DNA of 64,000 nt. Origin: a virus. The stretch's first letter is position 1; the number at the start of each line of letters is the position of its first letter. A program made the translations under genes and the position numbers. This document shows, piece after piece, positions 716-17,690 of the stretch. The notes under the pieces were generated by a model. It was not told the DNA's origin, did not search any database, and saw only the letters and a list, made by a program, of their open reading frames with translations. The stretch covers positions 1 to 64,000 of the IMG/VR virus record IMGVR_UViG_3300028299_000003. The stretch is one strand, 5' to 3'.

Positions 716-1456
716 TTATTCCTCCTTGTTTTTAATTTTTATTAATCCTTTTTCTATATCTCTAACTAATGAAGCGTTTTCAAATTTTTGTTTTTTAATA
801 AGATAACATTTTAATTCATATACTTTTTCAATCGCTGTGTCAAATAATTCATTCTCCTTATCCTTCTTTTCAGTATGAAATGGTATTTCCCATTGACCAT
901 CAACACAATATTGATTTAATTTTTCATCATATGTAATATTTTTTCCATCCAATCTTATACTACCAAATTCTTTTCCGTGTAGTGACCCTTTACCAGAACG
1001 AACATAATAGAAATCGGATTCATCTGTCTCACTTATTTTTGACAAAATTTCATTTGTTTTATCATCATAAAATTTTATATCAACCATATACGCTTCTCCA
1101 CCTATTAAAGATGTCATTTTATCAAAGATAGTTGTTTTCAATTGAAATCTCAAATTTTTTATGAATTTATCAAATTTTTCAAATTCAATATTATCTAAAG
1201 TTTTTTTGTCAAAATAATATTTAGGAATAACATTATAAATATTTTCCATAATAATTTGATTACCAGATATCCATTCATTTATTAATTCTTTAGCTTTTTT
1301 ATAGTCCATAATCTTATGTAATTCATCAACATTATGTCTGAACTTTTCATTAATAGGTAAAATAAAATCAAAATATTTATTATCACGTTCTTGAACAACA
1401 ATATTTTTTATTGTGTCAATAATTTTTTGTGGGTTTATTTTTTCCATTGTTTTCAT
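716..1456 (-). CDS. Hypothetical protein with C-terminal UVR-like motif
   Basis: C-terminal KKQKFENASLVRDIEK resembles the UvrB/UvrC coiled-coil motif. Confidence 0.55.
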   Translation of the reverse strand: MKTMEKINPQKIIDTIKNIVVQERDNKYFDFILPINEKFRHNVDELHKIMDYKKAKELINEWISGNQIIMENIYNVIPKYYFDKKTLDNIEFEKFDKFIKNLRFQLKTTIFDKMTSLIGGEAYMVDIKFYDDKTNEILSKISETDESDFYYVRSGKGSLHGKEFGSIRLDGKNITYDEKLNQYCVDGQWEIPFHTEKKDKENELFDTAIEKVYELKCYLIKKQKFENASLVRDIEKGLIKIKNKEE

Positions 1457-1462
1457 AATTAT

Positions 1463-2368
1463 TTATTTATTTTTTACATTTATTCCAATATACTCATATT
1501 CTTTACCATATATTTTAAAGTTATTATCATATAAAGATATATTATTTTTATTATTTGTAGAATCAAAAATTACACGACCACCCTTAGAAATAATAAAATC
1601 CTTATTACTATTAACAAATCTTCTCAATAATTCCTTATCAGAAATACTATAGTTCTTTGGTGGTATCACAGTACCTTTTATTTTATTTACCTTAATTAAC
1701 TCTATTTTATCTCTGAATTTTTCATTAACAATTTCATATTCAAATTGATCATTTGTTATACAAACATCAGATATGGTATTCGCTGTTTTTACAAAAAATG
1801 GGATAAAACAATAAGTGTTATAATTTCCAACTATATCCGCGATATAATCATCTACTGTCTTTTGTTCATTTTCCATAATCCTATATAATGTGTGTATCAT
1901 TTTCTTATTTAGTATAAACGCGAATGCCCCGAAATTTTTATAACTTTTATAAACATATGTTTTTACCATCTTTGGTTCAGGACATCCATGAAAATGACAA
2001 CCTAAGTACATTATATCCCAGTTTTTTGGCACAACATTTGAATAATAATCAAATCTTTCTTTAAAATCAGAACAAAATATTATATCATCTTCAAATACAC
2101 ATATTCTATCATAATCATTATCAATTGCGTCTTTTAAAACCGAACGATGACTTCTCAACGCTCCCTGTGCTCCTTGATTTTGTTTACCTAGATCTGGGTG
2201 GTTTATTTTTAATTCCTCTTCTGGGATTGTCATTCCATCAATCGCTGAAAATCTATAAGATTCAATATCAAATCTTTTAAATTCATCCACCATAAGATCC
2301 CATCTATCAGTTCTCCTATCTAAATTTATACAGTAAATTTTATCAACAAAATCGTTTATATTAGTCAT
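1463..2368 (-). CDS. Glycosyltransferase family 25 with extra C-terminal domain
   Basis: YCINLDRRTDRW, FSAIDG, GALRSH and VFEDD motifs. Confidence 0.85.
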   Translation of the reverse strand: MTNINDFVDKIYCINLDRRTDRWDLMVDEFKRFDIESYRFSAIDGMTIPEEELKINHPDLGKQNQGAQGALRSHRSVLKDAIDNDYDRICVFEDDIIFCSDFKERFDYYSNVVPKNWDIMYLGCHFHGCPEPKMVKTYVYKSYKNFGAFAFILNKKMIHTLYRIMENEQKTVDDYIADIVGNYNTYCFIPFFVKTANTISDVCITNDQFEYEIVNEKFRDKIELIKVNKIKGTVIPPKNYSISDKELLRRFVNSNKDFIISKGGRVIFDSTNNKNNISLYDNNFKIYGKEYEYIGINVKNK

Positions 2369-3098
2369 TCAAATTAATTAATTTTTTATATTTATCCTTT
2401 TTCCTAATTTCTAATTCTGTCTTATATTGAAGATCTCTTTGACTATTATCAGAAATTGGGTTGTCTAAGTTGTATATATATAAAACTTCAGGGACATACA
2501 AACTATGGTATCCCGACATTTCTAACATAGGAAATTGAAACGCTAAATCCCAGGTTATTTTTAAGTAATCCCCATTATCATCTTTAAGATCATCTTCATT
2601 TATTCTTAAAAATAGTTCCCTTCTAAATGTTCTCAAGTGTGTAGCTAACCATTCTATTTCTCTAAATTTATTTTCTTTTATTTCATTTTGTGTATAACTT
2701 CTAAGATGATTTGGTTTTTTACCATTTGATTCATATGATCCATAAGTTATCCAAACACTTGAATTGTAGATATTGTTAAGATAATTAAGAACATTGTTAT
2801 TTTTTAATTTATCATCACCATCTAATGTAATGCATATTGAATTTTCTTTTGATAATACAACACCATTTCTTATATTATATAGACCATACATTCTTTTTTC
2901 ATTTCTTATTATTTTAAGATTTTTTATATTTTTATAATTATTTAAAACAAATTCATAAGATCCATCTGTTGAAATATCATCTATAAATATAATTTCAAAA
3001 TTATCATAATTTTGATTAATAGCACTTTCAATTGAATCTTTTATCCATTGAATATTATTATATGATGGTATTATTATAGTAAAATGATTATTCATCAC
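2361..3098 (-). CDS. Glycosyltransferase family 2
   Basis: IIIPSYN, IDDISTDGS and LDGDD (DxD) motifs. Confidence 0.88.
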   Translation of the reverse strand: MMNNHFTIIIPSYNNIQWIKDSIESAINQNYDNFEIIFIDDISTDGSYEFVLNNYKNIKNLKIIRNEKRMYGLYNIRNGVVLSKENSICITLDGDDKLKNNNVLNYLNNIYNSSVWITYGSYESNGKKPNHLRSYTQNEIKENKFREIEWLATHLRTFRRELFLRINEDDLKDDNGDYLKITWDLAFQFPMLEMSGYHSLYVPEVLYIYNLDNPISDNSQRDLQYKTELEIRKKDKYKKLINLND

Positions 3099-4284
3099 TT
3101 AATATTTTTTTGTACATTTCTCTTCTTTTATTATTAACAACATCCATTTCATATCTATCAACAACTTTTTCATATAGTTTTTCACCCATATCTATTATCG
3201 CTGATGGATTTTCATGAAACCATTTCATTTTCTCATACCACATATTTGGTTTTGATTCATCAATCAAAAATCCATCTACACCATCCTCAATATCAATTGT
3301 ATATGGGCCATAATTACTCGCGATTATTGGGCATTTGTATATTCCCGCTTCTATTACTTTTAGTTGACTTTTATAATAGTTAAATAAACTATTATTTTTT
3401 AATGGTGACAACACAACATCCGCTTCGTGGTACATTGTACCATATGTTAATATTGGTTTTGTCCATCTTCTTTGATAAAATTCTTGTCTGAATTCTTCAA
3501 CTATACCATAGTTTTCATCACTAAATGTATTTAGATATTGTCTATGTTGCTCGTTTTTTAACCATTTACCACCATTTGTGAAAATATGTTCAAAGAATGA
3601 CCATTGATTTGATTTTGGATCACTTTTTATTATACCCTTTGGTGTCCTAACTCTTAGGTCAAAACCACATAAATATAATTGACAATCTTCTAAAAAGTCT
3701 TTATCAAACATTTCAAATGATTTTTTCATTAACCTAAGATCAGGCATATGACTTATACCACCACCCCAAAGAAATCTTATTTTATCTGAAGGTATTTTAT
3801 TTTCAACTCTCCACTGATATTCATCCTTGTTCAACGCGTTCTCCATAACAAAAACATTTTTATTTAATTCCTCAATTCTTTTCGCGAAAAGAGGTGTTGT
3901 TGTAGTTACATAATGAGCTGATTTTATCAGCCCTTCCATCATTTGTTGAGCGTTAGATTTTTTCCATCCTGAATAATTCAAATGTGAACTACTTAATATC
4001 CAATAGTCATCTATATCCCATACTATTCTTATATTATATTTATTTACAATTTCTTCAAACGCTTTACCATATTCTGGTTTACTGAAATTAATAACCTTAT
4101 TGTAAAATACAATGTTAAAATTACTCAAATATCTTTCATCTGCTAAGTTTAATGTATGATCGCTCAACATTCTTATTTCTACATCAATATCATCATACAT
4201 CATATGACTATGTGGATTTAGTATGCGATAGTAGCCAATACCATCTACATCGGCTGTTAGAGCTAGAATTTTCGGTTTTATCAT
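3088..4284 (-). CDS. GT-B fold (family 4-like) glycosyltransferase
   Basis: GYYR..P, WDIDD, and KSQLKVIEAG..PIIAS..PY...GVDGFL motifs. Confidence 0.8.
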   Translation of the reverse strand: MIKPKILALTADVDGIGYYRILNPHSHMMYDDIDVEIRMLSDHTLNLADERYLSNFNIVFYNKVINFSKPEYGKAFEEIVNKYNIRIVWDIDDYWILSSSHLNYSGWKKSNAQQMMEGLIKSAHYVTTTTPLFAKRIEELNKNVFVMENALNKDEYQWRVENKIPSDKIRFLWGGGISHMPDLRLMKKSFEMFDKDFLEDCQLYLCGFDLRVRTPKGIIKSDPKSNQWSFFEHIFTNGGKWLKNEQHRQYLNTFSDENYGIVEEFRQEFYQRRWTKPILTYGTMYHEADVVLSPLKNNSLFNYYKSQLKVIEAGIYKCPIIASNYGPYTIDIEDGVDGFLIDESKPNMWYEKMKWFHENPSAIIDMGEKLYEKVVDRYEMDVVNNKRREMYKKILSDE

Positions 4285-4372
4285 TTAACTTAATTATTTT
4301 TTATATTTTAATTGAAAAATTCATAAAAGTTTTTTTTAATATATAACAATAGATATAAAAATTAATATATAG

Positions 4373-4729
4373 ATGAAAGATTACTTAAATTTTATGAATG
4401 AAAATATGGAAACTAGTGGTTATAACTTATACATAGAAACAGATGAATCATTGTTTGATGAGAATTGGGATATATCAATAAATATATCAGACATTTGGAA
4501 ACCATATGAGGAACAAGAAATAGATTTGAAAAAATTTGTCCATAGATATAAATTAAGAATAAACGACCATAAGAATGAAATTATAGATATGAAAGGTGCT
4601 GATTCATGGAATGAGTTAGCTGGTATATTAAATGAATTCAATGTTTTTGATAATGAATCATCCCTTCACAAGTTTGATGAGATATATGACTGGGCGGATA
4701 AAAACTCAGTAGAAATGAACTGCCGCTAA
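4373..4729 (+). CDS. Hypothetical protein; last codons supplied by the IS right end
   Basis: ORF after a TATATA motif; the reading frame enters the IS right end at 4716. Confidence 0.6.
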   Translation: MKDYLNFMNENMETSGYNLYIETDESLFDENWDISINISDIWKPYEEQEIDLKKFVHRYKLRINDHKNEIIDMKGADSWNELAGILNEFNVFDNESSLHKFDEIYDWADKNSVEMNCR

Positions 4730-5944
4730 ATTAAAGATTTAGCCAACTTCTACGCCACAAGCACAATGTAACCATTCACTTTGAGTGACGCTGGGTTGGT
4801 TCCTCAACCCGAAATTTCTTATATTTATAGCAGCATTGATGTCCCTGTCGTGTATAGAACCACATTTTTTACAGGTCCATTCTCTATCATTTAAAGTTAA
4901 ATCCTTATTGATTGTTCCACAAACATTACAAGTTTTTGATGAAGGATCAAATCTACCAATCACACTTAAATTTTTACCATACCAATCACATTTGTATTCA
5001 ACCATAGATTTAAATTCAGACCACCCCATATCTAAAATGGCTTTATTCAATTCTGATTTTGCTGATTGACCATTAGGTATATATTTTCCATTTTCGTCTT
5101 GCTTTGGCTTACATCTTTTAACCATACCAGAGACATTTAAATCTTCCATACAGATTGTATCATAATTATCAACCAAGTATCGGGAAATTTTATGTAAATA
5201 ATCCTGTCTTTGATTTCTAATGTGTTCGTGTAAAAGGGCAATAACCATTTTTTGTTTTTTGTAGTGATTGGAATCCTTTGTTTTTCTTGCTAAGGATCGC
5301 TGCTCTATCCTTAGTTCATTCATAGCAGATTTAAAGAAATCGTGGTTCTTGAATTTCATTCCATCTGAAGTTATTACAAAATCTTTTATACCTAAATCTA
5401 AACCAACTGATGTTTTAAACATTATAGGTTTCTTTTCAGGTTTTAATTCGCTAGTATCAACTAGTATAGACACATAATATTTGTTAGTAATTGATCTTGA
5501 TACGGTTATAGTTTTTATTTCACCTTTAAACTCTCTATGTAAATCTATGTCTATATATCGTAATTTGGGTAAAAAAATTTGTTTTTTATTCTCACTAAAA
5601 AATACACCTTGAGGTAATTGAAATGACTGCTTCCCATATCTGTTTTTAAATTTAGGAAAGCCAGCACCATTAAAAAAATTATGATAGGCATTATCTAAAT
5701 TGCGAGTAGCCATCTGTAATGCCTGTGATGGACTTTCTTTTAACCAAGGAGCATCTGTATTTTTTAATTCGGTTATTTGTTTATTTAAATCAAAGCAATT
5801 TATGTTTTTCTTATTGCCAGTATAGTTCATTATTTTTGTTTCTAAACCAAGGTTATAGACAAATCTAACCTGACCAAAAATCTTTGATAGGTATTCTTTT
5901 TGGTCCTGATTGGGATATATTCTATATTTATATGCTTTTAACAT
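4716..5944 (-). mobile_element. IS200/IS605-family element carrying only tnpB; right end and omega-RNA region at ~4716-4810
   Basis: On the - strand, the subterminal hairpin GCTAAAT-CTTTA-ATTTAGC followed by GGCAGTTCA is a typical right end; no tnpA or clear left-end hairpin seen. Confidence 0.7.
4739..5944 (-). CDS. tnpB: RNA-guided endonuclease TnpB
   Basis: N-terminal KAYKYRIYPN HTH; RuvC motifs GLDLG, MEDL and DRDINAAINI; CxxC..CxxC zinc finger; catalytic D-E-D intact. Confidence 0.93.
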   Translation of the reverse strand: MLKAYKYRIYPNQDQKEYLSKIFGQVRFVYNLGLETKIMNYTGNKKNINCFDLNKQITELKNTDAPWLKESPSQALQMATRNLDNAYHNFFNGAGFPKFKNRYGKQSFQLPQGVFFSENKKQIFLPKLRYIDIDLHREFKGEIKTITVSRSITNKYYVSILVDTSELKPEKKPIMFKTSVGLDLGIKDFVITSDGMKFKNHDFFKSAMNELRIEQRSLARKTKDSNHYKKQKMVIALLHEHIRNQRQDYLHKISRYLVDNYDTICMEDLNVSGMVKRCKPKQDENGKYIPNGQSAKSELNKAILDMGWSEFKSMVEYKCDWYGKNLSVIGRFDPSSKTCNVCGTINKDLTLNDREWTCKKCGSIHDRDINAAINIRNFGLRNQPSVTQSEWLHCACGVEVG

Positions 5945-6097
5945 TACTTTACACTAATTATATTTGTTTCTGTAAAGATATATATAATTAAAAAAATATG
6001 GTTTTTTCCTATTTTTAAAAAGTTTATTTTAATATATAATATAAAAGATGATGAGATTGATGATTTAATGAATTTATTAGGGAAATAAATAAAAAAT

Positions 6098-6592
6098 ATG
6101 AAACATTTAAAATTATATGAAGAATTCAATAACCCTAAAATAAAAAAGGGAGAGAGAAAAATTTTAGATTTAATTTGTAAATTATTACAGAGACAATTAG
6201 ATACTGATGATATGAATTACACAATGACTAGAGATTTTATTATGATTGACGCTGAAACCACATTAGTTATAGATAATGAATATTTTTATTTACGGTTATA
6301 TAGACAGAATAAATTTGGTATCACATCCAATATAAAATATAATTTAAATCCCAAAAAACGATTTCTTTCTGAACCATTAGAAGATGAAGAAGAAGATGAA
6401 GATGACCATGACAAGGGAAAGTGGCCTGGTTGCAGTTTATGGGAATATGATGGTGAGATAAAAAGACACTCTCAGAAACTTAATGAATTAATAAATCGTT
6501 TATGGAAGAAGAAAGTGAAGTATGATAAAAATAAAGTGGATAGGGAGAAAGAAAAAGAAGTTGATGATCTGATGAATCTTTTAGAATTATAA
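6098..6592 (+). CDS. Hypothetical protein, MKHLKLYEEF N-terminal family
   Basis: Shared N-terminal motif. Confidence 0.65.
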   Translation: MKHLKLYEEFNNPKIKKGERKILDLICKLLQRQLDTDDMNYTMTRDFIMIDAETTLVIDNEYFYLRLYRQNKFGITSNIKYNLNPKKRFLSEPLEDEEEDEDDHDKGKWPGCSLWEYDGEIKRHSQKLNELINRLWKKKVKYDKNKVDREKEKEVDDLMNLLEL

Positions 6593-6608
6593 ATTACTAT
6601 ATAAGTAT

Positions 6609-6968
6609 ATGAAACATATAAAATTATTTGAAGATTTTAACCAAGACAAACTAGATACTGGATATTATTCACCATCTGTTGGTGACACTGTTTATATTAA
6701 TTATAAAATCCCAGGTGGTAGTAATAATTATGAACCAACACCAGTTAAAATAATCGCGATAAAAGGATCTGGAAGAGAAAAAGTTTATATCGCGTCTCAT
6801 AATGTAGAGTTAAGTAAATTCAAATTCGCCCCCGATCAAAGTGTTAAAAGAACAGACATAATAGGACCATATAAAGGTGTAGAAACACCAGCTGGATATG
6901 GGTGGGTCGCGAAAAATCCAAATATAAATACTGGAGTCAATCAAGTTTCAAATGATATGGCTATTTAA
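6609..6968 (+). CDS. Hypothetical protein, MKHIKLFEDF N-terminal family
   Basis: Shared N-terminal motif; SH3-like VGDTVYI segment. Confidence 0.65.
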   Translation: MKHIKLFEDFNQDKLDTGYYSPSVGDTVYINYKIPGGSNNYEPTPVKIIAIKGSGREKVYIASHNVELSKFKFAPDQSVKRTDIIGPYKGVETPAGYGWVAKNPNINTGVNQVSNDMAI

Positions 6969-7006
6969 TTTTCAATTTTAATATATACTTTAAAATAAAT
7001 ATAATT

Positions 7007-7327
7007 ATGTTTATTAATGACTTTTCATTATTTTTAAATGAAAAATATGAATCTGGTGTTTTTGATTTTAATGGATTGAGTTTTAAATTAGATACTTTTT
7101 ACGATAATGATGAAACTTATGTTAGAATACTTTATATGGATAAACATTATGAAGATCTATCGGTAATAGTTCCGAAATCAAAAATTTTAGATACAGATGA
7201 ATTTTTCTTAAATCCAAATATAGATAAAGAAATGGTGAATGTACTAATAGATCAGGGGTTTATAGAATGTACAAATAAAAAAACTATGGCGGGTGACAAG
7301 TTGACAAAATCATATATGTTAGTATGA
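7007..7327 (+). CDS. Hypothetical protein
   Basis: ORF after a TATATA motif; N-terminal F..FLNE. Confidence 0.6.
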   Translation: MFINDFSLFLNEKYESGVFDFNGLSFKLDTFYDNDETYVRILYMDKHYEDLSVIVPKSKILDTDEFFLNPNIDKEMVNVLIDQGFIECTNKKTMAGDKLTKSYMLV

Positions 7328-7782
7328 GATTTTTAGAGAATTATAATAAGTATAGAAAGGAAAAGGATATAAGTATGATACCAACTTCATGTCACGCTAG
7401 TTTTAATTATGAATTTTTAATATCAAAAGATGAGTTATTAAAAAGTAAAGATGAATTAACAAAATATCTTTCCAATAAAGAAGAGAATGATAAATTAAAT
7501 CCGTTCAAAAGAAAATTAACTATTAATAAGTTAAATATTATGTATCTTATTGAAGATTATTATAATTTTTTTGAAAGCATGTTTCGTGATATGAAAGTTT
7601 ATCGTTATGTTGGAAAAGCCATGACAAAGGATATGATTGAATACTCAAATCAAGTAAAAGCCACAAAGTTTAAATCACTCGCAGATACTTATGGATTTGA
7701 TGGTGGAATAGTCAGATATTGGGTGTTTACAGACGCTGTGGTTTTTCAAACATCAAAAAGAAAAGAATTAAAGATAAGATGA
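7324..7782 (+). CDS. Hypothetical protein
   Basis: ATGA-coupled to the upstream gene. Confidence 0.6.
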   Translation: MRFLENYNKYRKEKDISMIPTSCHASFNYEFLISKDELLKSKDELTKYLSNKEENDKLNPFKRKLTINKLNIMYLIEDYYNFFESMFRDMKVYRYVGKAMTKDMIEYSNQVKATKFKSLADTYGFDGGIVRYWVFTDAVVFQTSKRKELKIR

Positions 7783-8654
7783 AAAAGATTTTTACATATT
7801 CATTAGTTTTCATATTGTTATTTTTAGTATCTTGTTGTAGTACAAAGAATCGTCAATATGAAAAATCGGAATCAGTTATTATATCTGATACAGTTATTAT
7901 GATTCAGAAAAGACAAAGAACAGAGGATTCAATTAGATTTGAAGAAATGAAAAGAGAAGAATCATCTAGAGAAGAAAAAGAAAGACAAACACTTTCAAGA
8001 ACAGAGACCGCTGCACCTGTTTTATCAAGCCCACCAAGAGCAACACCAGTTGAGAGTGTACCAGAAAAATCTTTACCATCAACCCCACCAGCTGCTGGTG
8101 AATTAGAGATTATGATGGATAATGGTCTTATGTATGGTGATATAACATATAAAGAAGTTGACACAATGGTTGTTGGTAGAACAGATGTTTTAGAATTGAC
8201 AATATCTTATGATATACCAATTAGTAGAATTGTTGAAGAGGTTCATACATTTATAAGTGAAGGTGAATTGGTCTCAGAACCAATAAGAATCGCCCCAAAA
8301 ATGTTAGTAACATTGATTGATCCAACAAATGGTGTAAATTTTACTATAATACCAATATCACCAGAAGAACAATTAATTGAGGTTAATGATATAACAAAAT
8401 GGAATTGGAATGTTACTCCACTAACAAAAGGTAATAATAAATTAGTATTATCTGTTAATATAGTATTGGAAAATGGAATAAAAAATATCCAAGTATATGA
8501 GGATTATATTTATGTGTATTCAGATGAGTCTATTTTTGAGAGATTCTGGAATTGGTTTATAGATAACTGGGAACCATTTTTATCACTATTCATTATTCCA
8601 TTAGTTATTTGGGGTTATAATAGATTTATAAAAAAGAAGAAGGATGATGATTAA
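7779..8654 (+). CDS. Predicted lipoprotein with Pro-rich linker and C-terminal membrane helix
   Basis: Likely start at 7779: MKKIFTYSLVFILLFLVS-C lipobox; C-terminal hydrophobic FLSLFIIPLVIWGY followed by KKKK. Confidence 0.65.
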   Translation: MKKIFTYSLVFILLFLVSCCSTKNRQYEKSESVIISDTVIMIQKRQRTEDSIRFEEMKREESSREEKERQTLSRTETAAPVLSSPPRATPVESVPEKSLPSTPPAAGELEIMMDNGLMYGDITYKEVDTMVVGRTDVLELTISYDIPISRIVEEVHTFISEGELVSEPIRIAPKMLVTLIDPTNGVNFTIIPISPEEQLIEVNDITKWNWNVTPLTKGNNKLVLSVNIVLENGIKNIQVYEDYIYVYSDESIFERFWNWFIDNWEPFLSLFIIPLVIWGYNRFIKKKKDDD

Positions 8655-9021
8655 GGAGTTTAATGAATTTTTAATGGAGAGTGTTGGGGATGATATAAAA
8701 TCATTTGGTAGAAAGATATATAACACAACAAAGATTAATGCCGCTTATATTATGACTGGATATAAGAAAGAGTTTATGGATTTGGTGAATGATATAAATT
8801 CGTATAGTAAAGGTGAAATAACAAAAAAAGAATTAACTCATCAATTTGTTAGTTTTCTAAAACTTTTAGGAATAACTAGTACAGTTGTAATTCATTCGTT
8901 TTTAACTATCGCGATAATTATAGCGTTTAAACGATGGGGTCTGACAAAATTTCTACCTGATGCGTTCCAAGATGAGGATAAAAAGATAGATGAGAAGATA
9001 GAATCAATATTAAAAAATTAA
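8644..9021 (+). CDS. Hypothetical membrane-associated protein
   Basis: IKEFNEFLMES N-terminus; hydrophobic segment. Confidence 0.6.
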   Translation: MMIKEFNEFLMESVGDDIKSFGRKIYNTTKINAAYIMTGYKKEFMDLVNDINSYSKGEITKKELTHQFVSFLKLLGITSTVVIHSFLTIAIIIAFKRWGLTKFLPDAFQDEDKKIDEKIESILKN

Positions 9022-9032
9022 TATATAACTCT

Positions 9033-9626
9033 ATGGATCTTAGTAATAAAAAATATTTCTTTGACCAATACAATGATGTGTGGTATATGATTCCTTATGA
9101 TAAAAGAGGAGAGTGGATTAAATTAAGGGATGAAAATAGTGAAGAAATTTCTAGTTATGATGAATATATTTTAGATATTGATATTGATCAGTATAGTTTT
9201 GAAAATCCAGAACCAATAACTCTCCCAGAAAAAATTGAAGAAAAAATGATAGAAAAAATTAGAAATTTTGATGATTTTTTAAATGAATCAAAATCCATTT
9301 ATGGTGGTACAGAAATTACAGATAAAAATATTCCAAACCTTCAAGAAGAGTGGGAAGAAAACGAAGAAAACAATTCTGGAAAATATTTTATTATAACATT
9401 CGCTGATAATTCGGGTGATGAGATACATTTCTGGCTTATGGATATACATCATTATGAATATGTACATAACACTATTGAACAGGGTGGATGTGAAGAAGAA
9501 GAATTTATGGAATTTGTTGATAACAACGCATTGGATCAAAAAATGGTCCAAACATACACTGAAATTGATTGGTTCGGTAATTATGATATAGAAAAGGTTG
9601 TGTATATACCAGAATTTGGAATGTAA
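9033..9626 (+). CDS. Hypothetical acidic protein
   Basis: Internal IRNFDDFLNES motif. Confidence 0.6.
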   Translation: MDLSNKKYFFDQYNDVWYMIPYDKRGEWIKLRDENSEEISSYDEYILDIDIDQYSFENPEPITLPEKIEEKMIEKIRNFDDFLNESKSIYGGTEITDKNIPNLQEEWEENEENNSGKYFIITFADNSGDEIHFWLMDIHHYEYVHNTIEQGGCEEEEFMEFVDNNALDQKMVQTYTEIDWFGNYDIEKVVYIPEFGM

Positions 9627-9639
9627 AAAAATTTGATTT

Positions 9640-9987
9640 ATGAAAATAAAAAGATTTGAAAATATTGATTTTGATGAAAATAATTGGGATTATGAAGAAG
9701 AAGATGATTCATCAAAAAAAGTAAAATTGGATAAAGATAAGATGGTTGATGATATAATGAATATGATATATAATGACCCATCTGGATACGAGGACTTTGT
9801 GTATGGTATAGTTGAGAATACTTTGAGAGATTATGATACAGAAGATTTGAAAGATATATTACAATATGAGGATGATGAAATATGTGATGAATGTGATGGA
9901 GAAGGTTATATAGATGGTAAAAAATGTGAAATATGTAATGGAACTGGAAATGTTGATATATATGAATACAAATATGGAAAAAAATAA
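9640..9987 (+). CDS. Acidic protein with DnaJ-type CxxCxGxG zinc-finger repeats
   Basis: CDECDGEG and CEICNGTG. Confidence 0.6.
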   Translation: MKIKRFENIDFDENNWDYEEEDDSSKKVKLDKDKMVDDIMNMIYNDPSGYEDFVYGIVENTLRDYDTEDLKDILQYEDDEICDECDGEGYIDGKKCEICNGTGNVDIYEYKYGKK

Positions 9988-9997
9988 TTAAATAAAA

Positions 9998-10666
9998 ATG
10001 CCAACACCAAAAAAGGGTGAAAGAAAAAAACACTTCATTAAAAGATGTATTCCTTATCTTCTTGATGAAGAACCAAGTACCCTAACATCAAAAAAGAAAA
10101 AAGGAAAACAATCGTACGCGATTTGTAATTCAATATACGATAGAAGAAATAAAAAGAATGAGAATATTGATATTTATACTGATGATGTTTTAACAGATGT
10201 GATGGGATTTTTAAATCTTATGGAACCACCAGAGTTTTATGACGCGGTATCGTTGTTGAATAAACATATAAACAATAACCCAGATGATGAACACGCGAAA
10301 GATTTGTTTAAAGAATTAAAAGGATTAGAAACATATTATCAACCAGATTTGGATACTCAAGAAATATCTAGTTTTAGTGATTATTTAACAGAGGATAATT
10401 TTTTAGATGATGAGTTTGAGTGGGAAGATGAAAGAGATACATATGAACAATTTTCAACTTGGTTATATAAACACGATTTTGAATTTTATGAAGGTGAGGA
10501 AGACTTTAAGGAATATTTTTATAAAATATTAAGTGATGATTCCTTAGACTCAAAAGAAAAGTCATTAAAAATTGTAAATTATTTAGAAGAAAAATGGGGG
10601 CTTTATGATGGATGGGAGGAGACTTTTCAAAAATTATTTTCTATAATAGAAAAAAAAATAATCTAA
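9998..10666 (+). CDS. Hypothetical protein
   Basis: Basic N-terminal PKKGE...FIKRC...AIC domain followed by an acidic region. Confidence 0.6.
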   Translation: MPTPKKGERKKHFIKRCIPYLLDEEPSTLTSKKKKGKQSYAICNSIYDRRNKKNENIDIYTDDVLTDVMGFLNLMEPPEFYDAVSLLNKHINNNPDDEHAKDLFKELKGLETYYQPDLDTQEISSFSDYLTEDNFLDDEFEWEDERDTYEQFSTWLYKHDFEFYEGEEDFKEYFYKILSDDSLDSKEKSLKIVNYLEEKWGLYDGWEETFQKLFSIIEKKII

Positions 10667-10721
10667 TGATTCAGAAGAATCTAAAGAATTTTTAATATAT
10701 AAATTAAAATTAAGTTAATAG

Positions 10722-11882
10722 ATGGGTGGTCATGCTTTAGATAAATTAGGTATAAAAACAGAACGAAAATCAACAAAAGAACTTTATATAATATTTGATA
10801 AATTAAATAGATATTTTAGTAAATTTGACACTACTATACCAAGATTTTATAGAAATAAGAAAACACATGGTGATTTAGATATTTTGATTAAAGTTTCTAG
10901 TAATGAAATAATATATAATATTGTTAAAGATAGAATAAATCCCGATGGATTAATAGTTAATGATAATATTATAACATTTGATTATGATAATTGTCAAGTA
11001 GATTTAATTTGTATAAAAGAAGATATCTGGGAATCAGCGAAAATCTATTATTTATATGATCCTTTACCAAATCTTTTTGGCAAGACAGCTCATGGATTTG
11101 GTTTAAGATTTGGAATGGATGGATTATTTTATAAATTTATAGGAAAAGGTGGAACGAATACTCATGTGATTAAATTAACAACAAATCCTAGAAAAATATT
11201 TGAGTTTCTAGGTTTTGATTATGATAGATTTGAAGAAGGGTTTGATAATGTTACTGATATTTATGAATTCATAGTAAATGGAAAATTTTATGATAAAGAA
11301 ATGTTTAAACCAGAGAATTTAATCGCGGTTGATAGAAAAAGAAGTATGAATAGACCATCATATCGTGCTTTTTTAGAATATTCAAAATCAACAACGTCAA
11401 ATTTCACATTTGATAAAAATAAAAATGTTTATATAGATTATATTGATGAAAATTTTCCAGGGTTTAAAGAAAAATTAAATGTTTATATAGAACGGGATAA
11501 TATGATAGATCCTAGAAAAAAATTCAGGGAAGCGATATCAAATCACAAACCAGGAAAATTACTTGGAACAATTATCGGATATTATACAAAATCTAAAGAT
11601 GATTTTAATAAATTTATTATAGAAAGTGATATTGAGGCAATAAAAAAAGATTTTGATAACTTCTATATAGGATTCAATAAAAATGAAAATCTTTTTCTAA
11701 AGAAAATAACTGATTATGAAACATTTAAAATGACAGTTAAAAATTATGATATAACAAATCATAATTCCATATCTAATTATGACAGCAGGCAATCTAAAGA
11801 AATTCCATGGGAAGATGTATTTATTAAACCAAAAAATAGTGATAGATATATAAAACCATATGAGAAAGGAAAATTATTTTAA
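10722..11882 (+). CDS. Pol-beta/PolX-fold nucleotidyltransferase-like protein
   Basis: HGDLDIL (DxD), QVDLI third Asp, GLRFGMDGL and IFEFLG motifs. Confidence 0.65.
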   Translation: MGGHALDKLGIKTERKSTKELYIIFDKLNRYFSKFDTTIPRFYRNKKTHGDLDILIKVSSNEIIYNIVKDRINPDGLIVNDNIITFDYDNCQVDLICIKEDIWESAKIYYLYDPLPNLFGKTAHGFGLRFGMDGLFYKFIGKGGTNTHVIKLTTNPRKIFEFLGFDYDRFEEGFDNVTDIYEFIVNGKFYDKEMFKPENLIAVDRKRSMNRPSYRAFLEYSKSTTSNFTFDKNKNVYIDYIDENFPGFKEKLNVYIERDNMIDPRKKFREAISNHKPGKLLGTIIGYYTKSKDDFNKFIIESDIEAIKKDFDNFYIGFNKNENLFLKKITDYETFKMTVKNYDITNHNSISNYDSRQSKEIPWEDVFIKPKNSDRYIKPYEKGKLF

Positions 11883-12358
11883 ACTTTCATTATCTAATTA
11901 TTATATAATTAACATAAAAAATTTTAGAATATGAAAAACACTATGAAAATATATTATGATGACGATCCATATTCAATTATTAGTAAAGTAAACGATTTAA
12001 TAAGTTCTTGTGGGATAGAGATTATTGAAGGTGATAGTGATGATGGTTGGGTAGAGTATGAAGTCATAATACATGACCAAAAAGGTGAAGAGATTTGTGA
12101 ATGAAAAATTGTATTTTAATACCTACATTTTGAAACTGGGATTGATTATTCAATTCTTTTTATATTTACCATAGTTGTAATATCATACATTTGTTCACCA
12201 ATTTTCAATTTTTTCACCATGGAATTAAATGTACTAGAAAATTTTGGCAATCCTTCTTTTTCAACTGTTTCTTTTTCACCTTTTTTATTAGTTATTTCGT
12301 ATTTCATAAGATATTTTTATTTTATATATAATATCAAATCGGGTCAATTTTAAAATAA

Positions 12359-12402
12359 GAAAAGGAATGGATTTAATGGTCTAACCAAATCCATTCCTTT
12401 TC
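12359..12402. terminator. Intrinsic terminator closing the tRNA-Glu-like array
   Basis: gaaaaggaatggattt...aaatccattccttttc long inverted repeat just 3' of the last tRNA-like gene. Confidence 0.7.
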
Positions 12403-12406
12403 AATG

Positions 12407-12475
12407 TAGCCCTTGTGTGAATCGAACACCACTTATCGGGAACCCCCGAAGTCCTATCCAATAGACGAAAGGGCC
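12407..12475 (-). ncRNA. tRNA-Glu-derived RNA with 4-nt anticodon loop and bulged T-stem
   Basis: GGCCCTT TC GTCT..GGAC T TCGGG-GGTT-CCCGA TAA GT(G)GTG-TTCGATT-CACAC AAGGGCT A. Confidence 0.75.
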
Positions 12476-12493
12476 ATAATTCTGAGAATTGAT

Positions 12494-12592
12494 TCGTCAT
12501 TATGGGATTTAAACCCATATTCCCTTTCGGGAATCCCTCTAAAGAGGGATTACTCTGCTTCGCAGGAGTCCTGTCTTTTGGACGAAATGACA
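12494..12592 (-). ncRNA. tRNA-Glu-derived RNA with tiny anticodon hairpin and two extra arms
   Basis: TGTCATT/AATGACG acceptor; GTCC/GGAC D-stem; CTGC-GAA-GCAG; ATCCCTC-TTTA-GAGGGAT; TCCC-GAAA-GGGA; ATGGG-TTTAAAT-CCCAT T-arm. Confidence 0.65.
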
Positions 12593-12637
12593 GAACCTTT
12601 TCTCATTTTTTAAAATCTTAATAAAAGATAAAAATAG

Positions 12638-12726
12638 TAGTCCTAGAGGGATTCGAACCCCCGTTACCAAGAAAACCTTGGCGTCCTTATCCACTTTAAA
12701 GTGGAGTTCCGTTAGACGATAGGACC
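12638..12726 (-). ncRNA. tRNA-Glu-derived RNA with 5-nt anticodon loop and a hairpin in the D-loop
   Basis: GGTCCTA/TAGGACT acceptor; D-loop insert TCCAC-TTTAAA-GTGGA; CCAAG-GTTTT-CTTGG; normal TTCGAAT T-loop. Confidence 0.78.
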
Positions 12727-12732
12727 GTTTTG

Positions 12733-12819
12733 TAGCCCCTGTGGGACTCGAACCTCACATTCCTAGGACAATACCTAGGGTCCTGCACATCGGACGATGA
12801 TCCGTTAGACGAAAGGGCC
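12733..12819 (-). ncRNA. tRNA-Glu-derived RNA with 6-nt anticodon loop, D-loop hairpin and bulged T-stem
   Basis: GGCCCTT/AGGGGCT acceptor; D-loop insert CATCG-TC-CGATG; CTAGG-TATTGT-CCTAG; GTG(A)GG-TTCGAGT-CCCAC. Confidence 0.75.
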
Positions 12820-12864
12820 ATTTTATTTTCGACTTATTTTTTTCAGTATCTCAAAGAACAAAAA

Positions 12865-12895
12865 CAAAGGTACATTGTTTTTTTGACAAAACAAA
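12865..12895 (-). promoter_or_regulatory. Bacteroidota sigmaA-type promoter followed by a boxA-like site
   Basis: TTTG-N19-TACCTTTG; GTTCTTTGA at 12851-12859. Confidence 0.65.
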
Positions 12896-12919
12896 ATTTT
12901 TCTTTGTTTTTTTTTTATG

Positions 12920-12994
12920 TCACCCGTAGGGGATTCGAACCCCTGATTTCAAGGATGAAAACCTTGCGTCCTAGACCGACTAGACGAACGGGCG
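12920..12994 (-). tRNA. tRNA-Glu(UUC)
   Basis: Canonical cloverleaf, CAAGG-TT TTC AT-CCTTG. Confidence 0.95.
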
Positions 12995-13001
12995 TATTTT
13001 G

Positions 13002-13156
13002 TAGTCCTAGGGGGATTCGAGCCCCCATGACCAAGAAAACCTTGGCGTCCTTATCACACAATCTGGATTTGAACCATAATTCCTCTATTCTATTATATAA
13101 GAGGGTGTTTCCTTTTGTTACACTATTTGTGTGAGTTCCGTTTAGACGATAGGACC
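13002..13156 (-). ncRNA. tRNA-Glu-derived RNA with a second cloverleaf (13054-13134) nested in its D-loop
   Basis: Outer part nearly identical to 12638-12726; inner part TCACACAA/TTGTGTGA, GTGT/ACAC, CCTCT/AGAGG, TGG-TTCAAAT-CCA. Confidence 0.75.
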
Positions 13157-13279: not shown

Positions 13280-14185
13280 TGGAATGAGACTACTTCCACT
13301 TCTGACTGATACCTTCATTGTATTATCCCTTTGACTCCCATCAGAGGGTTCTCAATTTGTCCACATCCACCAGGGATGTCTATCAGCGACGCTGCCGTTT
13401 TATAGTTGGTGACTCAACTTTTACCATCAATCATATTCAACTTTCCGAATACCCTCTGCTTTCGGGGCAGTTCGTGGCCGCTAGACCACTAGGTGCATCT
13501 TTCAATCAAATTCATCCGTCTTGGGAACTTCAGAACTCTCGGTTCACCCGTAGGTGCTAAGAATTAAGCGACTTTCAGATTGATGTTGAGTGGGCCTTTC
13601 CATTTGATAACAAAATGCAGGAATTGAACCTACGTTTTTTATTTAAGCGATAAATGCCTTACCACTAGGCAAATTTTGTTAGTCCACCAAGAAGTGCCCA
13701 CTCAGCTGTTCTATATCCTTTTGAGATATAAAATTCAACACTTCTCATGCGTTTCGGGCTACCGACCCTACTGTGCGGTTCTTCAAGAATCCTGACCCCT
13801 CGTTCTACCAAGGAATCATTCACCTCTGGAACTATTAGATAGCCATCACGTTGGTCTGCTTTGACAGTCTAATCACTCCTTATCCAATCAGATGTATCAA
13901 TCGGCTGACGAATGGCGTTGGGTGTCACCCCATATTAGAGAAGCTCCTTACCCATTGCCGTGACAATGGGGGCTTACCTCTCGTATTCTTCCCACAGAAC
14001 CATAACCGATTTTCCACCTTAGTTCCACCGAAGTGAAACCCGCCACTGGGATGCGTTAGGATGAAGTTTGCTTGGATGAACTACCCGAAAGTAGCAGGAG
14101 ATTGTGAACATTTACTCCTCTTTTACACCTTACGATGTATTATCCTTTATCCCCCGAAGGGGAAAACTTCCCAAACAAAGTTAAT
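13280..14185 (-). ncRNA. Large structured ncRNA, probably GOLLD-like (ends approximate)
   Basis: ~900 nt, markedly GC-richer than the flanks, no credible ORF; several UUCG/GNRA-capped hairpins on the - strand; own promoter; lies between tRNA genes; 3' end GTGGAT..ATAATAC..AAGG..GTAGTCTCA recalls GOLLD (from memory, not searched). Confidence 0.65.
13609..13680 (-). other. tRNA-like domain (CUU loop, G at position 33) embedded in the large ncRNA
   Basis: ACAAAAT TT GCCT-AGTGGTA-AGGC A TTTAT-CGCTTAA-ATAAA AAAC GTAGG-TTCAATT-CCTGC ATTTTGT; enclosed by the TGAGTGGGC/GCCCACTCA helix. Confidence 0.7.
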
Positions 14186-14567: not shown

Positions 14568-14655
14568 TGCTCCAGATAGGATTCGAACCTATAAGCCTCA
14601 TTATGGCGGTGATTCCTGAGACCACTGTGTTTACCTTGGTTTTCACCACTGGAGC
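14568..14655 (-). tRNA. tRNA-Leu(CAG)
   Basis: GTGGT-CT CAG GA-ATCAC, long variable arm, A73. Confidence 0.9.
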
Positions 14656-17391: not shown

Positions 17392-17690
17392 CGGCCCGTG
17401 TAGGATTCGAACCTACGACCAACAGATTACACATTATCCATAATTTTCATTACGGGGTGGACTATATCATCATCTCTACTGAGATGTCGGACGCTATTAA
17501 AGGTTTATTGATTGATTTTCTCACCTTTTAGTCTCTGCACCTTCCCAAATACTCTTATAATCTTCTCTGGGCTTGGATCAGGATTGCCATATTAAAGGTT
17601 TCCCTGAGTTCATCCGATTTTCCATATGTGGTCACCCACATACGCTGCAATCTTTACAGTCTGCTGCTCTACCAGCTGAGCTAACGAGCC
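17392..17690 (-). tRNA. tRNA-Asn(GUU), intron-containing
   Basis: Exons 17690-17656 and 17429-17392 join to GCAGA-CT GTT AA-TCTGT; G73. Confidence 0.9.
17430..17655 (-). ncRNA. Group I intron (226 nt, no ORF) between anticodon positions 35 and 36
   Basis: P1 CUGU^AA/UUGCAG with U.G at the splice site; core AATCCTGA, GCAGAGACTA and GATATAGTCC; terminal G. Confidence 0.9.

Follow-up and report, generated by a model that had tools for sequence, protein, structure and literature searches.

The roles of non-decoding tRNA look-alikes in phages are nearly blank, and RNAs C and D of phage T4 (rnaC, rnaD), small stable non-coding RNAs of the phage tRNA cluster with unknown function (PMC9697503), are unexplained after decades. 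The present analysis concerns an array of such look-alikes in a 64,000-nucleotide stretch of viral DNA (hereafter the window), which comprises the first 64 kb of the 76.6-kb IMG/VR virus record IMGVR_UViG_3300028299_000003. In the window, one decoding tRNA-Glu(UUC) gene lies on the minus strand (13156-12407) among five cloverleaf-like genes, designated G1, G3, G4, G5, and G6. These genes represent three types (A, B, and C) that recur in other phages, and they very probably encode functional, non-decoding mimics of tRNA-Glu. To our knowledge, RNAs C and D of T4 do not form arrays of copies of tRNA-Glu in which the anticodon arm is closed.

Each of the other nearest known systems likewise matches only one aspect of the array. 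The mascRNA of MEN-beta is tRNA-shaped with a non-functional anticodon loop, is cut out by RNase P and RNase Z, receives a CCA tail, and does not decode; however, it is a eukaryotic 3′-end product of a long RNA, whereas the array RNAs are free-standing, multi-copy phage genes with host tRNA marks. The tRNAs linked to GOLLD RNA (Rfam RF02032) share the setting, in that the phage tRNA island also includes HNH endonucleases and the GOLLD linker holds a tRNA, but those in the literature examined are ordinary or pseudo-tRNAs, and three anticodon-less tRNA-Glu types in fixed order are not described there. YrlA and other bacterial Y RNAs (RF02553) are also non-decoding and carry a tRNA-like domain (PMC4201824), and the type C core on its closed helix is similar. 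They differ in that the array has no RF02553 match, that no TROVE gene was found in the DNA searched, and that types A and B are free-ended. The tRNA-Other of Bacillus cereus (PMC3399842) is likewise tRNA-derived and non-translational and has a cellular effect, but it is a single chromosomal bacterial gene from another parent tRNA, whereas the array RNAs are phage-borne and multi-copy. Finally, anti-defence phage tRNAs (PMC10264068) also set a phage RNA of tRNA type against host tRNA nucleases; they are decoding tRNAs with 7-nt loops, whereas in the array this loop is abolished. A bait role for loop-less phage RNAs of tRNA type has not been described before. No Rfam family covers the array RNAs, and a literature search found no paper describing them.

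In all five genes, the acceptor stem has 7 bp, positions 8-9 are TC, the D-stem is GTCY/GGAC, and an intact anticodon stem is capped by a short loop (Table 1; residues such as G1·U72 below follow tRNA numbering). The loop lengths, never 7 nt, were obtained from both the parse and ViennaRNA folds and are the figures already given in an earlier note made from the sequence alone. Since the 7-nt loop is replaced by a closed loop of 3-6 nt, decoding is impossible. The acceptor stem, T-stem and T-loop, D-stem, and D-loop GG of a canonical tRNA are present in G1, G3, G4, and G6, with a standard T-arm throughout except that the T-loop of G1 begins with C instead of T. G5 has an off-consensus T-loop (TTTAAAT) and a D-loop without GG, and it sits on an extended outer helix in which 12605-12600 pairs with 12488-12483 (fold of -49.5 kcal/mol, z -7.1); G5 is thus not a free-ended tRNA shape. 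Three further features had been correctly described in the earlier note: the D-loop inserts of G1, G3, and G4 (a hairpin or larger) all occur at one site, after the GG; G5 carries two extra arms in the variable region; and G3 and G6 share a one-base bulge in the 5′ strand of the T-stem, which lies between the third and fourth pair. The D-loop of G1 exceeds the usual length by approximately 85 nt and folds into a small tRNA-like module. With regard to existing models, only G4 passes the cut-off of the Rfam tRNA model (RF00005, 29 bits), G1 scores 20.4 bits, and G3, G5, and G6 gave no Rfam match at E values up to 10. G1 scores 88.3 bits against the type B covariance model (R2), whose training set includes G1. 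The 3′ ends of the tRNA-like genes read A73 followed by CA or CT, so that CCA is not encoded, as in host tRNA-Glu genes, and units are spaced by 5-10 nt.

Transcription signals of the array are partly predicted. The dedicated promoters, boxA sites, and terminator claimed in the earlier note stand as far as the terminator and the recurrence of the promoter motif in homologous arrays are concerned, whereas P1 (ahead of G1) and P2 (ahead of G3) are only moderate consensus matches and remain predicted promoters. The P1 block, TTGNNA-N16/17-TATMTT-tgtattgtaat-GTTCAT..AAAA, recurs before both arrays and GOLLD in the related stretches L135, L140, and L147. A consensus promoter scan near P2 picked TTGAGA-N18-GAAAAT at 12854-12825.

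Selection on structure was examined in alignments of 9 type A and 10 type B sequences, a small sample in which paralogues are mixed with orthologues. Of the type A helix cells, 98.9% are paired, and both-side changes occur in 8 of 21 pairs (acceptor, anticodon, and T stems), with covariation in three of the five anticodon-stem pairs; in type B, 99.5% are paired, with both-side changes in 6 of 21 pairs. None of 500 shuffles attained the values of either type, and sliding the partner by 1-3 columns reduced pairing to 29-67%. The D-loop hairpins keep their position, and their sequences are unrelated. All 24 type A and B copies, from about seven phages, have loops of 4-6 nt, compared with 7 nt in all six co-resident decoding tRNA-Glu genes, which argues that the short loops are not due to chance. 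Together, the nearly complete helix pairing, the compensatory changes, and the kept order, types, and short loops point to selection rather than decay, in agreement with the view of the earlier note that the genes are selected non-decoding mimics. Opening of the short loops to 7 nt was also considered. It would be possible for type B only, giving GGUUUUC, and was rejected for want of U33 and of a purine at position 37.

Relatives of the array were sought with several kinds of query. A window-specific motif search of IMG/VR returned one sister contig (L005), exact motifs otherwise found nothing, and a 14-mer search gave chance matches only, apart from the same contig. Scanning of a metagenome collection with a structural pattern (TCGTCTA, a gap, and the bulged T-arm) yielded 23 stretches, among which are five further arrays (L135/L147, L140/L145, L144, L149, and L142). 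Their shared order is GOLLD upstream, a promoter with boxA-like leader, type B, (type C), decoding tRNA-Glu(UUC), (a promoter), type A, type B, (type C), an insert-less type A, an initiator-like tRNA-Met, and a terminator. Wherever a homologous locus has sufficient flanking sequence, it is immediately preceded by a GOLLD RNA that exceeds the Rfam cut-off (163-173 bits). This linkage, the outer helix of G5, and the three conserved types had been overlooked in the earlier note. Type A (G3 and G6) is characterized by the acceptor GGCCYTT, a small D-loop hairpin, a loop of 4-6 nt, and the T-stem bulge; orthologues of G3 occur in five other loci, and the counterpart of G6 lies at the same array position in L149 (1871-1941). 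Type B (G1 and G4) has the acceptor GGTCCYA and the anticodon-arm consensus CCAAG-GTTTT-CTTGG, from which a few copies deviate in stem or loop, and its D-loop ranges from 9 nt (normal) to 188 nt. In L140, L145, and L147, an entire tRNA-like gene lies within the D-loop of type B, and G1 holds a small one likewise. In type C (G5), an extended closed helix carries the tRNA-like core, the anticodon arm is variable or absent, and the relatives of G5 fold alike.

Covariance models of types A and B (R1 and R2) further detected three clustered members at about 229 kb in the 735-kb phage LR756501. These have 4-nt loops (TTAT, TTAC, and TGTA), G1·U72, and A73, and one contains a UUCG-capped D-loop hairpin. 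Randomly degraded stems in homologues, which the earlier note would have taken as the mark of ordinary pseudo-tRNAs, are not what these searches revealed. A blastn search against 50,697 phage records returned only tRNA-Glu of LR756501/LR756503. Searching with the motif of the decoding tRNA-Glu turned up a further huge-phage tRNA island (L125/L126), whose examined stretch holds no family member, and a pattern scan of bacterial genomes gave no family member either, only bulged tRNA-Gln genes and chance matches.

Several variants were seen in the sister arrays. The nested type B genes, located upstream of GOLLD, occupy 5484-5697 of L140, 8057-8270 of L145, and 8451-8699 of L147 (all minus strand). 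ARAGORN calls a tRNA-Ile (GAU) inside the D-loop in L140 and L145, and a further T-arm-like hairpin is present in the nested copies; if RNase P and RNase Z cut out the inner tRNA, the outer RNA would become two paired halves. Between GOLLD and the array of L149 (2469-2540, minus strand), ARAGORN calls a UUA (ochre) suppressor, in which a C-G pair can close the loop to 5 nt. The array-ending tRNA-Met looks initiator-like in L135 (1747-1820), L140 (3212-3288, minus strand), and L149 (1790-1864, minus strand), and the window array lacks one. The tRNA-Met genes of L135 and L140 have a 1:72 mismatch, in addition to a GGG/CCC anticodon stem in L135 and a T-stem bulge in L140. Short Ga0316628 contigs (L131, L146, and L148) carry a G+C-rich tRNA-like gene with a 5-nt loop and a type A-style T-stem bulge, which may be a distant relative of type A.

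The family probably derives from the tRNA-Glu of a Bacteroidota host, judging from the residues that the copies share with bacterial genes. A GG start and a weak end pair, G1·U72, are seen in every copy; G1·U72, A73, and U13·G22 are invariant in all 24 type A and B copies, whose acceptors follow the form GGYC.../...GRCT, U11-A24 and U13·G22 are invariant in all 19 aligned copies, and the variable loop has 4 nt in nearly all. A GG start together with a weak end pair can elsewhere make the CCA-adding enzyme add CCACCA, a degradation tag. When the type A model was run on three Bacteroidota genomes, the chromosomal tRNA-Glu(UUC) scored highest in each (58.6-62.1 bits). The acceptor of these genes is GGCCCGT/ACGGGCT or GGTCTGT/ACGGACT with A73 after it, and their variable loop has 4 nt; types A and B share these features, and the copies of LR756501 match them exactly. 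The strict U72/A73 pattern of tRNA-Glu was found in 24 of 201 genomes, all sampled from Bacteroidota. By comparison, the decoding tRNA-Glu of the phages scores 47-51 bits against the type A model and has C1-G72 in all six arrays. Of the tRNA-Glu-type acceptor, D-stem, and T arms reported in the earlier note, the D-stem holds; the acceptor, with G1·U72 and A73, is that of host-type Bacteroidota tRNA-Glu and not that of the neighbouring C1-G72 decoder, and the T-loop of G5 is off-consensus. An origin from tRNA-Arg, suggested by 5′ halves common to phage tRNA-Arg, was rejected, as the 3′ strand of the D-stem, the anticodon-arm remnant, the variable loop, and the acceptor fit tRNA-Glu better.

It was reported that U11-A24, U13·G22, and a 4-nt variable loop are major determinants for the glutamyl-tRNA synthetase (GluRS) of E. 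coli and that U34, U35, C36, and A37 are the strongest ones (PMC9976931, in which mascRNA is also named). The anticodon determinants are not kept in the array: the loop is replaced, and type B retains a UUUUC remnant whose C is paired into the stem. Bacteroidetes hosts have been predicted for phages larger than 634 kb, and phage GluRS genes nest among those of Bacteroidetes (PMC7162821). LR756501 encodes a full-length bacterial-type GluRS with anticodon-binding domain (TIGR00464, 475 bits; 1423-3051 of L180, i.e., 133.3-134.9 kb) and three decoding tRNA-Glu genes at about 170 kb; it also has at least one other synthetase, so that the presence of GluRS is weak support. No GluRS was found in the present 76-kb record, which represents approximately 11% of the genome.

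The T-stem bulge had been proposed in the earlier note to exclude EF-Tu. This proposal failed, since the same bulge occurs in chromosomal tRNA-Gln(UUG) of Bacteroidota and in tRNAs with 7-nt loops, including a tRNA-Met of a sister array, and is thus no mark of exclusion from translation. The bulged tRNA-Gln(UUG) (GCG-T-GG/CCCGC) was seen in Cyclobacteriaceae, Ohtaekwangia, and Chryseosolibacter metagenome-assembled genomes (L157-L160, L168, L173, and L174), and we know of no earlier description of it.

GOLLD RNA adjoins the array of the window directly upstream. It scores 147.4 bits over the full 416-position model of RF02032 (E 4.5e-40; cut-off 150), and the Rfam model does not extend to its 5′ half (13747-14167). 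In the embedded tRNA-Lys(CUU)-like module, the acceptor stem is AT-rich and the anticodon loop unusual; the GOLLDs of sister loci hold other tRNAs, namely Arg(UCU) in L144 and one with an odd "tttt" loop in L149. The stretch is present in part in 15 lake metatranscriptome runs, and three RNA libraries and one DNA run were mapped. The RNA evidence consists of assembled contigs from libraries that may contain DNA; it indicates presence rather than mature ends, and structured tRNA-sized RNAs are poorly captured. GOLLD RNA is extremely abundant in the three lake RNA libraries, its contigs covering about 13312-14167 at a depth of 1400-13000, and an adaptor junction at 14167 is probably the 5′ end of GOLLD RNA. 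Array contigs, with depths of 3-6, cover 12440-12703 and 12681-12872 in one library, 12470-12876 in another, and 12456-12686 in the third, bridging G3, G4, and G5. As far as libraries that may contain DNA allow, these contigs speak against the lack of expression that the earlier note would have counted against function. No RNA-library contig covers 13052-13264 (G1 and its promoter) or the decoding tRNA-Glu, except foreign look-alikes, which is uninformative either way, and the contig ends at 12872 and 12876 agree with no predicted start site.

The best explanation overall, with a probability of about 0.35, is that the array RNAs are baits derived from host tRNA-Glu. They would be transcribed from their own promoters together with the decoding tRNA-Glu and, given the 12-bp acceptor/T stack and the D/T-loop elbow used by these enzymes, would most likely be cut into tRNA-sized pieces by RNase P and RNase Z and then receive CCA. 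These features are retained in G1, G3, G4, and G6; G5 differs. With the retained tRNA-Glu marks outside the anticodon (U11-A24, U13·G22, the 4-nt variable loop, G1·U72, and A73), abundant copies could occupy a host factor that recognizes the body and acceptor end of tRNA-Glu, offering no loop to cut. The factor would most likely be a defence nuclease or toxin directed at tRNA-Glu. Meanwhile, the phage tRNA-Glu with C1-G72 and, in some phages, a phage GluRS might keep glutamate decoding going. That tRNA-Glu is a plausible target follows from the preference of the anticodon nuclease RloC for tRNA-Glu on overexpression (PMC2610378) and from phage tRNAs that counter tRNA-targeting defences (PMC10264068). 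The mechanism of an uncleavable bait is itself put forward tentatively. A broader version appears rather speculative, namely an RNA-only counter-defence of Bacteroidota huge phages in which the mimics beside GOLLD, some with extra tRNA modules in their D-loops, soak up or misdirect a factor attacking tRNA-Glu, at its acceptor end or body, or its synthetase, a C1-G72 decoder and, in some phages, a phage GluRS sustain translation, and GOLLD may hold or present the mimics.

Several points weigh against baits. No partner protein or nuclease has been identified for the array RNAs, and we know of no defence system for which an anticodon-less tRNA serves as bait. As the known anticodon nucleases recognize the loop, a bait that lacks it would have to bind via its body alone. 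A single bait role also leaves the three types in fixed order and the D-loop inserts of up to about 180 nt unexplained. The host-like features could be plain inheritance from a captured host gene. One decoding tRNA-Glu of LR756501 has G1·U72, which limits the 1:72 difference between decoder and bait to the GOLLD-linked group. In addition, the array contigs are shallow and come from libraries possibly containing DNA, and the terminal type A copy of L140 is a deletion remnant, showing that single copies can be lost.

The main rival assigns the RNAs a role with GOLLD, in which they would be partners or cargo of its 14-subunit cage, either bound, enclosed, or acting as scaffolds that display the D-loop modules. 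This appears possible but doubtful. Apart from the upstream GOLLD at every homologous locus with enough flank and the further type B copies upstream of it, GOLLD and the arrays have one promoter and leader motif in common; GOLLD embeds a tRNA, and type C and the tRNAs nested in type B repeat this design of a tRNA on a helix; and the authors of the cryo-EM study propose that the cage may hold phage tRNAs (10.1101/2024.12.08.627333). However, GOLLD is common in tRNA islands and the linkage may be mere co-location, LR756501 has three members while GOLLD is undetected there (zero candidates in a first look), and GOLLD contigs are hundreds of times deeper than those of the array, although small structured RNAs are under-sampled. 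It is unlikely that the RNAs serve as GluRS ligands that titrate the enzyme, or as glutamate carriers for a non-ribosomal tRNA-dependent reaction. The D-helix determinants and the 4-nt variable loop are kept, LR756501 has its own GluRS, and U72 and A73 are positions read on Glu-tRNA-Glu by the LanB-like dehydratase MibB (PMC7672478), but the strongest GluRS determinants (U34, U35, C36, and A37) are missing and type C has no free acceptor end. Moreover, no tRNA-dependent transferase lies near any array, a LanB-type gene was not found in LR756501 in a search to which the control genomes were silent too, and titration would harm phage translation as well.

Processing marks, i.e., RNase P and RNase Z cutting sites that free true tRNAs and GOLLD from long transcripts, have precedents in mascRNA and plant t-elements and would fit the 5-10 nt spacing, which is like that of tRNA operons, and the precursor-like RNA contigs covering several units. 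Yet there is little to free, most neighbours being tRNA-likes themselves; GOLLD ends in a separate T-run, and the arrays have promoters of their own. In addition, an acceptor/T minihelix would suffice for cutting, whereas the D-stem wobble, anticodon stem, G1·U72, A73, and type-specific sequences are all conserved, which makes this role quite unlikely. Very improbable, too, are partners of Ro60 (Rsr) resembling Y RNAs, in the manner of YrlA with its tRNA-like domain on a helix. The type C core on a closed helix and weak YrlA matches elsewhere in the tRNA island would be in line with this, but there is no YrlA (RF02553) match at 12407-13156, types A and B are free-ended like tRNAs and lack a Ro-binding helix, and a search to which control genomes responded found no TROVE domain either in the 76-kb record, about 11% of a genome, or in LR756501, which is complete at 735 kb. 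Broken copies do occur in phage tRNA islands, as the remnant in L140 illustrates, but decaying pseudogenes of a duplicated tRNA-Glu are close to refuted by the approximately 99% paired helix cells, the compensatory changes, the order, types, and loops kept in about seven phages, and the invariant wobbles.

The family follows clear rules: host tRNA-Glu origin, a closed anticodon arm, an expandable D-loop, three ordered types, and GOLLD linkage. Its RNAs provide GOLLD, which forms a cage and whose function is open, with its first defined candidate partners, and they point to glutamate decoding (tRNA-Glu and GluRS) as possibly contested between huge phages and Bacteroidota. If the bait reading is true, they would constitute a new class of anti-defence molecule, and tRNA finders would be missing a layer of tRNA-derived phage genes.

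Table 1. Features of the array and the adjoining GOLLD RNA in the window.
Feature	Position	Strand	Description	Basis
GOLLD RNA	13281-14167; conserved 3′ half 13281-13746	-	directly upstream of the array	Rfam RF02032
tRNA-Lys(CUU)-like module	13608-13680	-	inside GOLLD	ARAGORN; Rfam tRNA 55.8 bits
Promoter-like P1	TTGTAT 13253-13248; TATCTT 13230-13225	-	17-nt spacer	read from sequence
boxA-like leader of P1	13213-13201	-	CGTTCATTGAAAA	read from sequence
G1, type B	13002-13156	-	155 nt; 5-nt anticodon-arm loop	fold, parse
Decoding tRNA-Glu(UUC)	12919-12994	-	7-nt loop; C1-G72 acceptor	ARAGORN; Rfam 59.8 bits
Promoter-like P2	TTGTCA 12889-12884	-	weak -10	homologous to P2 of L135, L140
boxA-like element of P2	12860-12849	-	TGTTCTTTGAGA	read from sequence
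G3, type A	12733-12819	-	6-nt loop; small D-loop hairpin insert; T-stem bulge (A)	
G4, type B	12638-12726	-	5-nt loop GTTTT; 16-nt D-loop hairpin	Rfam tRNA 38.3 bits
G5, type C	core 12494-12592; with outer helix 12483-12605	-	3-nt loop; two extra variable-region hairpins	
G6, type A without D-loop insert	12407-12475	-	4-nt loop GGTT; T-stem bulge (G)	
Intrinsic terminator ending the array	12359-12402	-	19-pair stem, then T-run	

With respect to its source, the window comes from a huge phage whose genome measures several hundred kb, the record being rated 11% complete by CheckV. Its G+C content is approximately 26%, with a G+C-richer RNA island at 12-14 kb. The tRNA island spans 12.4-20.2 kb of the minus strand and contains 13 ARAGORN tRNAs, a group I intron, and HNH endonuclease genes. 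The intron (17438-17666, minus strand; 96 bits) lies between called tRNA genes and may interrupt a tRNA. A long-arm tRNA at 14568-14655 (minus strand), apparently Leu CAG, scores 47.2 bits with Rfam and has no ARAGORN call. The neighbouring proteins, which include HNH endonucleases, a CHAD-domain protein, TnpB, glycosyltransferases, a Memo-AMMECR1-radical-SAM fusion, DnaK, and ClpB, gave no functional lead. The TnpB/IS605 OrfB-type gene of this phage fragment (4739-5944, minus strand) encodes OrfB_IS605 and Cas12f1-like TNB domains. A 733-aa fusion of Memo, AMMECR1, and radical-SAM domains is convergent to the array end in two lineages (4048-6249 of L147 and 2773-4971 of L145, both plus strand).

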